The position numbers and the translations under genes are program-made. From Eledone cirrhosa (taxonomy: Eukaryota): a DNA stretch of 64,000 bases. The notes under the pieces were generated by a model. The model had not been told where the DNA came from and did no database searches. It worked only from the letters and a program-made list of their open reading frames with translations. Shown piece after piece: positions 4,916-37,027 of the stretch (position 1 is its first letter; the number at the start of each line of letters is the position of its first letter). The stretch lies in the NCBI GenBank assembly GCA_964016885.1, contig OZ024760.1, forward strand, positions 27,962,001 to 28,026,000. Reading direction: 5' to 3'.

Positions 4916-5115
4916 NNNNNNNNNNNNNNNNNNNNNNNNNNNNNNNNNNNNNNNNNNNNNNNNNNNNNNNNNNNNNNNNNNNNNNNNNNNNNNNNNNNNN
5001 NNNNNNNNNNNNNNNNNNNNNNNNNNNNNNNNNNNNNNNNNNNNNNNNNNNNNNNNNNNNNNNNNNNNNNNNNNNNNNNNNNNNNNNNNNNNNNNNNNNN
5101 NNNNNNNNNNNNNNN
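4916..5115. other. Assembly gap (200 N) following a long (TA)n tract
   Basis: Run of n. Confidence 1.
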
Positions 5116-11975: not shown

Positions 11976-12018
<43 letters not shown>

Positions 12019-12060
12019 CTATATATATATATACACACACATATATATACACACAGCTAC

Positions 12061-12092
<32 letters not shown>

Positions 12093-12226
12093 ACACACAT
12101 ATATATACACACAGCTACATATATATATATATATATACACACATACACACACATATATATACACACAGGCCACATATATATATATATATATATATGTGAC
12201 TGTGTGTATATATATGTTCGGTATGG

Positions 12227-12268
<42 letters not shown>

Positions 12269-12325
12269 GTGGCTGTGTGTAATATATATGTGTGTGTATG
12301 TGTGTGTATATATAATATATAGAGA

Positions 12326-12790
12326 GAGAGAATTAGTACATCTACCAACATATGCGTACAGATGTACACTAATACTAGTAAATATATAAGTTATGTCAAA
12401 GTACCTAGGTGGTTCTATGCAGGAGGATGCAGAACAATTATATGAAAGACGTAAAATAAGAACATTTTAAAAATTAAAAATTAACTTACTTACTAAAATT
12501 TTCACTCCAACTAATTAGTTTCTGTAATGGGATAATATAGTTACACAATATAACTATCGAGAATTCATTACGTCATCAGGGAGTCTATTCTCAGCTAAGT
12601 TCCCAGGCAATGCGCGGACACTAGGAACCCATATAAAATAATAATTCAGTGGATGTAATAAGCTAGCGAGGACTAAATTCATAGCACTGAAAAAGTTCAC
12701 TGCCTCTGGTCAGTGGCAGATTCTAAAGAATCAATCACGTGACACTGAGGTTAGTCAGTTAGGAGTTGGGGTGGGTATTATGACAAGAGC

Positions 12791-12856
<66 letters not shown>

Positions 12857-13600
12857 TGAATTAGCAGTAGATTTGGCAAGTTGCTCAACAAATAATTTGA
12901 GATAATATAGAGAATTAGTACATCTACCAACATATGCGTACAGATGTACACTAAATGCTAGCAAATATATAAGTTATGTCAAAGTACCTAGGTGGTTCTA
13001 TGCAGGAGGATGCAGAACAATTATATGAAACACGTAAAATAAGAAAATTAAAAATTAAAAATTAACTTACTTACTAAAATTTTCACTCCAACTAATTAGT
13101 TTCTGTAATGGGATACATATAGTTACACAATATAACTATCGAGAATTCATTACGTCATCAGGGAGTCTATCTCAGCTAAGTTCCCAGGCAATGCGCGGAC
13201 ACTAGGAACCCATTATAAAATAATAATTCAGTGGATGTAATAAGCTAGCGAGGACTAAATTCCATATACTAAGAATAGACTCCCTGATGACGTAATGAAT
13301 TCTCGATAGTTATATTGTGTAACTATATTTATCCCATTACAGAAACTAATTAGTTGAGTGAAAATTTTAGTAAGTAAGTTAATTTTTAATTTTTTAAAAT
13401 TTTCTTATTTTACGTCTTTCATATAATTGTTCTGCATCCTCCTGCATAGAACCACCTAGGTACTTTGACATAACTTATATATTTGCTAGCATTAGTGTAC
13501 ATCTGTACACATATGTTGGTAGATGTACTAATTCTCTATATTTATCTCCAAATTATTTGTTGAGCAAACTTGCCAATCTACTGCTAATTCATTAGGTAGT

Positions 13601-13633
<33 letters not shown>

Positions 13634-13936
13634 GCTCTTGTCATAATATCACCCCCACTCCTAACTGACTAACCTCAGTGTCACGTGAACTTTTCAGTGC
13701 TATGGAACTTAGTCCTCGCTAGCTTATTACATCCCACTGAATTATTATTTTTATATAGGTTCCTAGTGTCCGCGCATTGCCTGGGAACTTAGCTGAGAAT
13801 AGACTCCCTGATGACGTAATAAATTCTCGATAGTTATATTGTGTAACTATATTTATCCCATTACAGAAACTAATTAGTTGGAGTGAAAATTTTAGTAAGT
13901 TAATTTTTAATTTTTAAAATTTTCTTATTTTACGTC

Positions 13937-13940
<4 letters not shown>
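12326..13940. mobile_element. Tandem-plus-inverted array of a 520-580 bp hammerhead-bearing monomer (4 HHRs)
   Basis: Units start at 12328 and 12910 (period 582), then the inversion begins near 13265. HHRs at 12504-12584(-), 13085-13166(-), 13279-13359(+) and 13803-13884(+): ACTCC-CTGATGA-stem II-GAAA-CTAATTAG-TT-GGAGT. Confidence 0.85.
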
Positions 13941-14034
<94 letters not shown>

Positions 14035-15184: not shown

Positions 15185-24045
<8,861 letters not shown>

Positions 24046-24227
24046 CATATATACTCTTGTTGTTACTGTTGTTGTTGTAACTGTTGTTGTTGTACTAGAC
24101 TCTCTGTAGTTCTACACAGATTTCAAGTTTATCTTCCATATTGGATTTCCCAATATTATGCAGCTTATGAAATACATCCAGGTCAGGGCTGTACAGATTC
24201 GGATGTCTTATAAGTTCATTATAAAGG

Positions 24228-24908
24228 CCGATTGGCAGAATCGGTAGAGCATCTGACACCATTCTTTGCAACATAGAGTTACGGCCCTTTATGTTCTGAG
24301 TTCAAATCTCGATGTTCTGAGTTCAAATCTCTGAGTTCAAATCTTGCCTTTCATCCTTACGGGGGTTGATAAAATAAAGTACCAGTAATGTACTGGGGTA
24401 CTTGCTGGCCTTGTGCCTATAGTAGAAACATTTATTATTTGTCAGGTTAACTTTGCCTTTCATCCTTACGGGGTCGATAAAATAAAGTACCAGTAATGCA
24501 CTGGGGTACTTGCTGGCCTTGTGCCTATAGTAGAAACATTTATTATTTGTCAGGTTAACTTTGCGTTTCATCCTTACGGGGTCGATAAAATAAAGTACCA
24601 GTAATGTACTGGGGTACTTGCTGGCCTTGTGCCTATAGTAGAAACATTTATTATTTGTCAGGTTAACTTTGCCTTTCATCCTTACGGGGTCGATAAAATA
24701 AAGTACCAGTAATAAATTGAGATAATTGGCAGTAATTGTTAGTGCGTTGGATACTCTGCTTCGTGGCATAGAGTTACGGCTCTTTACGGTCTGAGTTCAA
24801 ATCCCGCCGAAGTTGGGTTAGCTTTGCCTTTCATCCTTATTTGGTCGATAAAATAAAGTACCAGTAATGTACTGGGGGTAATTGCTGGCCTTGTGCCAAA
24901 AGTAGAAA
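24228..24908 (+). mobile_element. Nin-domain SINE cluster with 108-bp tandem amplification of the SINE 3' half
   Basis: Head at 24228; caggttaactttgc units at 24443, 24551 and 24659; second decayed SINE approx. 24725-24908. Confidence 0.85.
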
Positions 24909-25025: not shown

Positions 25026-25740
25026 CAGGCATGTCAAACTGAGGTACCCCTGAGGGCCACATGGGTCACCTATGTGTTGTCTGAAGGCCACATGGGTCAC
25101 ATATGTGTTGTCTGAGGACCACATGGGTCACATATGTGTTGTCTGAGAACCACATGTGTCTCATGTGTTGTCTGAGGGCCACATGGATCACCTATGTGTT
25201 GTCTGAGGACCACATGGGTCACCTATGTGTTGTCTGAGGGCCACATGGGTCACATGTGTTGTCTAAGAGCCACATGTGTCATGTGTTGTCTGAGGGCCAC
25301 ATGGATCACCTATGTGTTGTCTGAGGACCACATGGGTCACCTATGTGTTGTCTGAGGGCCACACGCGACAACTTATTGCACACATTACAACTAATGTTAT
25401 TTTATTTTACATTACGAAGATAAAACTTGCTCTTGCTGTAAAAACATTTGTGCGGGCCGCAGGTGTCCTTGTAAAGGGCCGCAGGTGTCCTTGTAAAGGG
25501 CCGCAGGTGTGTTTGTAAAGGGCCGCAGGTGTGTTTGTAAAGGGCCACAGGTGTGTTTGTAAAGGGCCACAGGTGTGTTTGTAAAGGGCCACAAGTGTGT
25601 TTGTAAAAGGCCGTAGGTGTGTTTGTAAAGGGCCACAGGTGTGTTTGTAAAAGGCCGCAGGTGTGTTTGTAAAGGGCCACAGGTGTGTTTCTAAAGGGCC
25701 GCAGGTTTGTTTGGAAAGGGCCGCATGAGGGCCGCATTGC
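25026..25740. mobile_element. hAT-like MITE with subterminal GGCC(A/G)CA motifs expanded into 31-bp and 22-bp arrays
   Basis: Starts CAGGCATGTCAAAC (hAT-type end). 31-bp array 25049-25363 and 22-bp array 25453-25730. Right TIR not found. Confidence 0.55.
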
Positions 25741-30183: not shown

Positions 30184-30190
<7 letters not shown>

Positions 30191-30576
30191 GTGAGGTTTT
30201 CTTTACAAAATGAAAAATAACCGAGGTGTCCTACACGAGTAAGAGTATAAAGAAAAAAAGATGAAATCGAAAATGCAACTGGAGTCTTATTTAAAAATAT
30301 ATATATATTTATTTGGTTCCTTTACCGGTTTCGCAGTTCTTCTGCTTTTCAAAAGTAGAGCTGAGATGGAGGGTCTGTGGTTTTTCTCACATCTGTGATG
30401 TGAGAAAAACCACAGATGTGAGAAAAACCTCAGATGTGAGAAAAACCACAGACCCGCCATCTCAACTCTACTTTTGAAAAACAGAAGAACTGCGAAACCC
30501 GTAAAGGAAGCAAATAAATATATATATTTTTTTTAAAAATAAGACTCCAGTTGCATTTTCGATTTCATCTTTTTTT

Positions 30577-30583
<7 letters not shown>
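30184..30583 (-). mobile_element. Family L tail plus fold-back with U3-A8 hammerhead (30320-30355)
   Basis: Arms 30246-30395/approx. 30433-30583. Minus strand CTT-TTGAAAA-GCAG aagaa CTGC-GAAA-CCGG-TA-AAG. Confidence 0.8.
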
Positions 30584-32300: not shown

Positions 32301-33660
32301 ACCCTCGTCTGGGATGCCACTTGCAGCGACACTTCCTCCAGCCGCAACCCGGTGCCGTCTGCGACTAACCCAGGTTCTGCAGCACTTCGGGCTGAGGAGG
32401 CCAAACTCTCCAAGTATCGGTCGCTTTCCGACGGGTTCGGGGTCGTGTCGGTGGCAGTGGAGACTTCTGGTGTCCTTGGCACTAGGGCTACCTCCCTACT
32501 TACCACCACAGGTACTGAGCTGGCTACCCGTAGCAGTGGATATTTCTAGTGTCCTTGGCCCTAGGGTTCCCTCCCTACTTACCAGCACAGGTACTGAGCT
32601 GGCTACCCGTAGCAGTGGAGACTTCTGGTGTCCTTGGCCCTAGGGTTCCCTCCCTACTTATCAGCACAGGCGCTGAGCTGGCTACCCGTAGCAGTGGAGA
32701 TTTCTAGTGTCCTTGGCCCTAGGGTTCCCTCCCTACTTATCAGCACAGGTACTGAGCTGGCTACCCGTAGCAGTGGAGATTTCTAGTGTCCTTGGCCCTA
32801 GGGTTCTCTCCCTACTTACCAGTACAGGTACTGAGCTGGATACCCGTAGCAGTGGAGACTTCTGGTGTCCTTGGCACTAGGGCTACCTCCCTACTTACCA
32901 CCACAGGTACTGAGCTGGCTACCCGTAGCAGTGGAGATTTCTAGTGTCCTTGGCCCTAGGGTTCTCTCCCTACTTACCAGCACAGGTACTGAGCTGGCTA
33001 CCCGTAGCAGTGGAGATTTCTAGTGTCCTTGGCCCTAGGGTTCCCTCCCTACTTACCACCACAGGCGCTGAGCTGGTTACCCGTAGCAGTGGAGATTTCT
33101 AGTGTCCTTGGCCCTAGGGTTCCCTCCCTACTTACCAGCATAGGCGCTGAGCTGGTTACCCGTAGCAGTGGAGATTTCTAGTGTCCTTGGCCCTAGGGTT
33201 CCCTCCCTACTTACCACCACAGGCGCTGAGCTGGTTACCCGTAGCAGTGGAGATTTCTAGTGTCCTTGGCCCTAGGGTTCCCTCCCTACTTACCAGCATA
33301 GGCGCTGAGCTGGTTACCCGTAGCAGTGGAGATTTCTAGTGTCCTTGGCCCTAGGGTTCCCTCCCTACTTACCAGCATAGGCGCTGAGCTGGTTACCCGT
33401 AGCAGTGGAGATTTCTAGTGTCCTTGGCCCTAGGGCTACCTCCCTATTTACCACCATAGGCGCTGAGTTGACTACTCCTAGCAGTGGAGATTTCTGGTGT
33501 CCTTGGTCCTAGGGCCACTCCCGCAACTCACCACCACAGGCGCCGAGCTGGCCAACCGCAGGCGTGAGCCTCGCGAGATGCAATGTCTCTTCCAGCGCAA
33601 CTCCTTTACCATCCTCCGGGGAAACACCTCCTCCATTCGGCCCGCTAAGGCTGTGGGGCG
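32301..33660 (+). mobile_element. CRE-clade non-LTR retrotransposon RLE 3' fragment split by an internal 79-bp tandem expansion
   Basis: LVWDATCSDT...AALRAEEAKLSKYRSL...VAVETSGVLG before the array and ELANRRREPREMQCLFQRNSFTILRGNTSSI after it, matching CRE RLE WDAT / AE..K..KY / VET.G / QR.S..I.RGN motifs. Confidence 0.85.
32454..33550 (+). repeat. 79-bp minisatellite (13 full units plus a partial one)
   Basis: gcagtgga starts every 79 bp from 32454 to 33481. Confidence 0.95.
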
Positions 33661-36693: not shown

Positions 36694-36717
<24 letters not shown>

Positions 36718-36724
<7 letters not shown>

Positions 36725-37027
36725 AGAGATGAAATCGAAAATGCAACTGGAGTCTTACTTTTTTAAAAAATATATATATTTATTTGGTTCCTTTACCGGT
36801 TTCGCAGTTCTTCTGCTTTTCAAAAGGTGAGTTGAGATGGAGGGTCTCTCACCTTTTGAAAAGCAGAAGAACTGCGAAACCGGTAAAGGAACCAAATAAA
36901 TATATATATTTAAAAAAAAAATAAGACTCCAGTTGCATTTTCGATTTCATCTCTTTTTCTTTATACTTTCACTCGTGTAGGACACCTCGGTTATTTTTCA
37001 TTTTGTAAAAAAAACCTCACTTTCTAA
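36718..37027 (+). mobile_element. Family L fold-back with two intact U3-A8 hammerheads (36790-36827 -, 36852-36889 +) plus tail
   Basis: CCTT-TTGAAAA-GCAGaagaaCTGC-GAAA-CCGG-TA-AAGG. Tail matches the reverse complement of 30184-30245. Confidence 0.85.

Follow-up and report, generated by a model that had tools for sequence, protein, structure and literature searches.

A divergent array of four hammerhead ribozymes in Eledone cirrhosa, very probably a Penelope-like insertion of a non-LTR retrozyme

Structure of the hammerhead array

The window analysed in this work is a 64,000-nt stretch of the Eledone cirrhosa genome (assembly GCA_964016885.1, contig OZ024760.1, positions 27,962,001 to 28,026,000), and window coordinates are counted from its first nucleotide. 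An array located at 12321-13940 carries two type I hammerhead cores on each strand, at 13161 and 12579 on the minus strand and at 13284 and 13808 on the plus strand, and both of its outer ends adjoin (TA)n. The features of the array and its borders are the following:

12250-12320: (TA)/(TG) microsatellite, putative target, left side
12321-13268, minus strand: left arm, about 1.6 units, 5'-truncated at the centre and ending at the long (L) terminus
12321-12443, minus strand: tail between the short and long termini, 116 nt in the unit, plus a terminal (CT)5
12504-12584, minus strand: hammerhead 1, type I, predicted cut between 12509 and 12508
12791-12856, minus strand: (TAG)22 within the unit, long runs being restricted to younger subfamilies
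13085-13166, minus strand: hammerhead 2, predicted cut between 13090 and 13089
13263-13274, strandless: head-to-head join of the two 5'-truncated arms
13271-13940, plus strand: right arm, about 1.3 units, beginning about 5-8 nt before stem I and ending at the short (S) terminus
13279-13359, plus strand: hammerhead 3, predicted cut between 13355 and 13356; a stem I G is absent in the window and present in the C1356 copy
13596-13633, plus strand: (TAG)~12 within the unit
13685-13688, plus strand: GTGA remaining from a 38-nt deletion
13803-13884, plus strand: hammerhead 4, predicted cut between 13879 and 13880
13933-13940, plus strand: short terminus ...CGTCTTTC, 63 nt past the cut
13941-14028: (AT)44, putative target microsatellite, right side

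Core-to-core spacing is 582 nt in the left arm and 524 nt in the right arm, the same periods that had been given in the initial annotation, and the cut-to-cut distances are 581 and 524 nt, respectively. The four hammerheads and the divergent layout described there were recovered from the core positions on both strands, together with stem I ACTCC/GGAGT, a long stem II, the CTAATTAG stem III and the GUU cleavage site, and the centre, placed near 13265, was found at about 13268-13273. The monomer had been counted twice on each strand, but each arm holds two ribozymes and hence only one cut-to-cut monomer (about 1.6 and 1.3 units).

Unit coordinates were defined so that u1-582 corresponds to window 13262 down to 12681, with the predicted cut following u173. 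The left arm consists of a few bases followed by u1-582 and u1-352, and the right arm of approximately u88-582, with the GTGA-bounded 38-nt deletion and the shorter (TAG)n that had both been noticed earlier, followed by u1-236; the difference between the two outer ends is a 116-nt tail. The exact GTGA deletion join was found at this locus and in its C1356 copy, and in no other fetched locus. The (TAG)n tract at 12791-12856 was born inside the element, being short in old subfamilies and reaching 22 repeats in the window and 17 in C1356.

The GC content across window 12001-14000 is 0.305. The longest ATG frame of the left arm has 51 amino acids and no match to a Penelope-like element (PLE) protein, so that no coding frame was recognised; an open frame with RT and GIY-YIG, as in an autonomous PLE, was not found in the array, and a simple pattern search of the left arm for a Pol III B box was negative. 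For a transcript coming in from the flank, whichever the side, the antisense arm would be encountered first and could pair back on the ribozymes, so that monomer release from the array would depend on initiation close to the centre.

The array recurs, with flanks matching over several kb, on the unplaced contig C1356, which differs from the window mostly by 1-nt indels or microsatellite length. Since C1356 holds both array and flanks, the structure is not a misassembly, although single bases of the window may be in error. The loss of one G from the third ribozyme, reported by the initial annotation, thus stands for the window and fails for C1356, where the base is present; it may be a consensus error or an allele.

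The repeat search of the window was dominated by microsatellites. Other features observed were a strand-skewed (TA/TG) microsatellite of about 9 kb (15185-24053), tandem repeats of 108, 31 and 79 bp (24344-24713, 25050-25363 and 32454-33552, respectively) and a gap of 200 N (4916-5115).

Distribution of the element in the genome

The pattern CTGAYGA-N45-65-GAAACTAATTAGTTGG gave 10,218 exact matches in the genome and the reversed pattern none, which indicates that the hammerhead pattern is not due to chance and that the monomer, for which a genome-wide search had been proposed, is not unique to this locus. A 251-nt query yielded 2,304 first-look candidates in the 3.0-Gb genome, the best 40 of which were scored. 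The element is non-coding, about 530 nt long, and its copies are from about 97% to 75% identical to the unit of the window. Many subfamilies with compensatory stem changes are present, and the young subfamily has a mean pairwise divergence of 2.7%. Copies range from single units to large multimers, with a type I hammerhead in each consecutive tandem unit. Older subfamilies form satellite-like arrays of at least 38 units (C5:84678000-84698000) and at least 19 units (C9:18441000-18451000), both counts being lower bounds because the arrays continue beyond the stretches examined.

At least five other hammerhead families with a palindromic stem III (CAGCTG, CCATGG, CAATTG, CTAG, CTGATCAG, CGTACG) were observed at L091 929-1496; L101, L108 and L039; L105 and L108; L109; and L034. 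The family at L091 929-1496 has two arms, which end 42 and 209 nt past the cut. Passengers of this type seem to be numerous in the genome.

Fold and covariation of the ribozyme

Stem II is flanked in the core by one additional C and one additional A, and Rfam gave no match in the array at the gathering score. Covariation was analysed in 25 related subfamily sequences picked for diversity, in which counts are not independent events. In these sequences 92% of the cells were paired, compared with 37-46% in slid controls, 8 of the 22 stem pairs had changed on both sides, and one stem II pair occurred in all four Watson-Crick forms; the core and stem III were nearly invariant.

Stem III is a 10-nt palindrome with a calculated duplex energy of -9.0 kcal/mol, the hairpin alone giving 0, and in the monomer the active fold lies 2.5 kcal/mol above the minimum. 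These values fit a model in which cleavage is predicted to take place in dimers formed through the palindromic stem III, and dimeric cleavage has been described for PLE hammerheads (PMC4209133, PMC6765202).

Insertion ends and pairing of the arms

The ends of the element were analysed in 120 fetched loci, which correspond to 79 places (78 without C1356) and are the top-scoring matches of four queries, a non-random sample. The constant and variable junctions, whose comparison had been suggested in the initial annotation, could be separated: 5' ends are variable, 3' ends are of two kinds, a short one at u236 and a long one at u352, located 63 and 179 nt beyond the cut, respectively, and the same termini inside arrays are constant and lack (TA)n. 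An ATAT word in the unit adjoins each 3' terminus, and 90 of the 95 listed terminus rows, in which places are repeated, continue into (AT)n or (CT)n. Repeats of (CT)n are frequently added at the long end, 1-25 of them occurring at termini compared with 1-2 inside units, which suggests reiterative slippage at the start of reverse transcription. Variable (CT)n at the long terminus was observed in the family of the window's element and also at L107 and L108.

Among the 78 places, 41 head-to-head joins were found, of which 35 paired a short with a long terminus, five had an unclassifiable end and one was cut off. Neither short-short nor long-long pairs occurred in the 35 classifiable two-armed insertions, which include the array of the window, and in all 35 the tail is present at one end only. 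The four-ribozyme divergent form is therefore an ordinary insertion product of the family rather than a special structure. The insertions also display 5' truncation, partial tandems and an inverted 5' arm, features of PLE insertions, which have been described with 5' truncation, partial tandems, an inverted 5' copy, a 30-40-bp tail that is often one-sided and (TA)n targets (PMC8557442). The array of the window is thus, with high confidence, a PLE-type insertion of a retrozyme, and the element is most likely a non-LTR retrozyme, a non-autonomous PLE derivative. The earlier term of retrozyme-like multimer was right as a class, but retrozyme and pLTR had been opposed as alternatives, and the evidence leads to one thing, a retrozyme with the PLE signature of two termini and inverted arms.

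Arms beginning at the predicted cut

A genome-wide search was carried out for arms starting exactly at GGAGT, with the pattern defined as GGAGT preceded by two non-T bases. It recovered 17 arms in 16 insertions, and all 17 were true ends. Control patterns at u170 and u156 gave 5 and 7 matches, with 5 and 4 true ends, respectively, an excess at the cut over the two control sites for which a one-sided binomial test gave p = 0.0008 when arms were counted and p = 0.0016 when insertions were counted. The cut is the starting point of both arms in 6 of the 16 insertions, compared with none of 9 controls (p = 0.045), and in these six the arms are separated by 0-1 nt at the join, the extra base pointing to untemplated addition. 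As the cut site is not palindromic, such joins are read as two cDNAs running off one cleaved RNA end. Older subfamilies gave two more insertions of this kind, and both arms likewise begin at the cut in L007, L160, L209 and L214. An unassigned 15-nt spacer was observed in L007 between the two arms starting at the cut. A search for double-ended joins with a short hairpin pattern lacked specificity (159 matches versus 75 for the control), and the element was present at 2 of the 15 places fetched.

Exact starts at the cut amount to less than 1% of the uncut crossings (17 versus 2,078). A larger cluster of 5' ends lies 7-10 nt past the cut, and it would be explained equally well by a structural block at stem I or by an AT palindrome. 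The position of the active fold above the minimum of the monomer and the additional bases next to stem II also count against this reading. Judging from these genomic termini, 5' ends at the scissile bond are likely to represent an indirect footprint of cleavage in vivo. In the PLE studied in PMC11167929, RNA reads ending at the cut were absent and cleavage was dispensable in vitro.

Penelope-like elements and the candidate helper

A search of the genome with the Pfam GIY-YIG domain returned 10,596 candidates, of which the best 150 were scored and 50 loci were read. These 50 loci included Neptune-like elements with CxxxxCxxC before GIY-YIG, a mark of the Neptune clade (PMC8557442). A full-length unit of 4,979 bp contains a 938-aa RT and GIY-YIG frame between two hammerheads, and the copies are 98-99% identical, a divergence close to the 2.7% of the young subfamily. 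Four GIY-YIG loci (L102, L106, L042 and L107) have two termini before (TA)n, one per arm.

Two more head-to-head insertions with a short and a long terminus, each in (TA)n, are present in the window at 30184-30580 and 36715-37027, and they are pLTRs of an autonomous Neptune-like PLE with a minimal U3-A8 hammerhead, CCGG stem III and a 65-nt tail. An 18-bp tandem repeat was observed in the centre of the former. The ribozymes of the Neptune-like families, with U3-A8 core and CCGG stem III, are unlike those of the window's element, and an autonomous PLE sharing its unit sequence was not found in the 50 GIY-YIG loci read (of 150 listed, from 10,596 candidates). Element copies near a GIY-YIG frame in L048 and L099 were considered as helper candidates and rejected, since by orientation and placement they look like separate insertions. 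A PLE helper is inferred from the insertion signature, and its RT/GIY-YIG protein is probably of the Neptune clade.

Proposed mechanism and alternative explanations

The two-armed insertion is, with good confidence, the product of a PLE RT/GIY-YIG protein acting in trans at (TA)n, likely in one event. In the mechanism proposed, this protein would nick the (TA)n tract and prime two cDNAs on a longer-than-unit RNA, the short site being primed from one target strand and the long site from the other. Each cDNA would extend back along the tandem RNA to a variable endpoint, and head-to-head joining of the two would give divergent arms; ribozyme cutting would be partial, most cDNAs crossing the cut site cleanly and a minority running off the cleaved 5' end. 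For a Poseidon PLE, the protein has been shown to cleave and extend the two strands of the target, with cDNA starting at a pair of internal RNA positions beyond the hammerhead that mark the limits of the tail (PMC11167929).

The nature of the template was evaluated from the cut-site crossings of the young subfamily. The 100 crossings listed, of 143, contain no indels and three substitutions in the four junction bases, not above the flanking bases (27 substitutions in the other 22), and they therefore carry no jump scar and are compatible with uncut read-through or with exact ligation. Formation of the tandem units by an RT jumping repeatedly from one monomer or pLTR RNA to another, the earlier alternative, would be in line with variants that differ between units of one arm and with untemplated addition of the extra base at double-ended joins, but it is disfavoured by this scarless cut site and by internal termini that are constant and lack (TA)n, and is very unlikely. 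A ligated unit-length circular RNA copied for more than one round with the same PLE helper, the model of the initial annotation and of PMC7229834, would account for the seamless crossings, for the long arrays and for one common SNP shared among units within 19 of 20 multi-ribozyme insertions, where some private changes also occur, those of L069 and L071 being common to both units; retrozyme circles have been shown in coral, mussel and axolotl (PMC7229834). However, insertions with both arms stopping at the cut imply that an RNA 5' end really existed at that position, and the 4-nt AGTA indel, which differs between units in 11 of the 20 insertions, the window's right arm included, would require slippage at each pass. 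In L174, L175, L181 and L007 a long arm passes through one cut site and ends at the following one, while the other arm ends at the first, and such joins are most easily explained by a linear RNA with a cleaved 5' end and intact internal cut sites. As the main template, an oligomeric RNA that is linear and cleaved in part is accordingly somewhat favoured over the ligated circle, which is considered rather unlikely.

Fold-back of a single primed cDNA that copies itself, its second arm joining the target at the other ATAT word, would dispense with a second priming on RNA, and it fits arms that start at nearly the same unit position (L019, L030, L009 and L165) and the usual shortness of one arm. 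This explanation is improbable, because joins in which perfectly inverted arms lie 0-1 nt apart, at a site that is not palindromic, leave no room for a loop, the absence of short-short and long-long pairs (0 of 35) would be unexplained, and extension on both strands has been demonstrated (PMC11167929). Insertions of LINEs also show 5' truncation and 5' inversion. Mobilisation by a LINE instead of a PLE, compatible in addition with the failure to identify a PLE partner by sequence in the 50 GIY-YIG loci, is highly unlikely, given that two internal 3' termini, one per arm, constitute the PLE tail signature (PMC8557442, PMC11167929), which GIY-YIG elements of the same genome share. An assembly artefact or a local inverted duplication of DNA is hardly credible: although the region is rich in microsatellites and shows 1-nt indel differences from the second copy, that copy on C1356 has the same four-ribozyme structure and flanks, and the architecture is common to 35 two-armed insertions.

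The full proposal, in which a hammerhead-cleaved, longer-than-unit linear RNA would be copied twice from fixed sites 116 nt apart, one per target strand, with the retrozyme spreading by PLE twin priming without a circle, is advanced as a tentative one. If true, inverted arms, one-sided tails and in vivo cleavage could be read directly from DNA.

Comparison with known systems

Circles have been described for metazoan non-LTR retrozymes, with PLEs named as likely helpers (PMC7229834), and animal retrozymes have been argued to be non-autonomous PLE derivatives from co-occurrence and pLTR homology (10.64898/2026.07.22.740005); in this last work (Li, Clavereau and Pollet 2026), one of nine elements was cleaved and eight of nine Xenopus retrozymes were not. 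How PLEs produce inverted arms and tails, which role their hammerheads have in vivo and whether PLE enzymes move retrozymes on circular or linear RNA are stated as open in PMC8557442, PMC11167929 and the 2026 preprint. An element of 530 nt with more than 10,000 copies, a strict terminus rule and ends at the scissile bond makes these questions countable in a genome and open to reconstitution in vitro from a short RNA. In the literature searched, which covered few subscription papers and the main text of the 2026 preprint, no publication dealing with this family or with genomic 5' ends at the cut of a hammerhead was found.

The element resembles metazoan non-LTR retrozymes in its non-coding, low-GC tandem units, each with a type I hammerhead, in its range from monomers to large multimers, in a unit size within 51-972 bp (Cervera and de la Pena 2020, PMC7229834; 2026 preprint) and in the presence in the same genome of PLEs, the proposed helper. 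It differs in a unit longer than the typical size of about 300 bp and in a minimal-type ribozyme with a long stem II and a 10-nt palindrome. The link with PLEs is here the terminus rule, without pLTR homology, whereas in the available text of the retrozyme papers it is drawn from co-occurrence and pLTR homology and not from insertion ends.

Like the Chlamys PLEs such as MRC1, which are putatively non-autonomous, the element belongs with non-coding PLE passengers that have pLTRs and form head-to-tail multimers; in the MRC1-type clade, however, canonical hammerheads are missing and the 3' end is similar to that of the helpers (PMC8557442), whereas the window's element has a hammerhead and no matched helper. 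With the pLTRs of EN+ PLEs (PMC4209133, PMC8557442, PMC11167929) the element shares a hammerhead that has a palindromic stem III and precedes two 3' termini, and also 5' truncation, partial tandems, an inverted 5' arm, a tail at one end and (TA)n targets. In contrast to EN+ PLEs, the element has no RT or GIY-YIG frame and its tail is of 116 nt instead of 30-40 (PMC8557442), and its core is C3-G8, compared with U3-A8 and CCGG in the Neptune-like families of this genome. Genomic ends at the cut were found here, whereas no RNA reads ended at the cut in PMC11167929. The retrozyme class is known and its PLE link has already been proposed in the literature, and the locus is an ordinary product of a common element, to which the terminus rule and the cut-site ends are useful additions.
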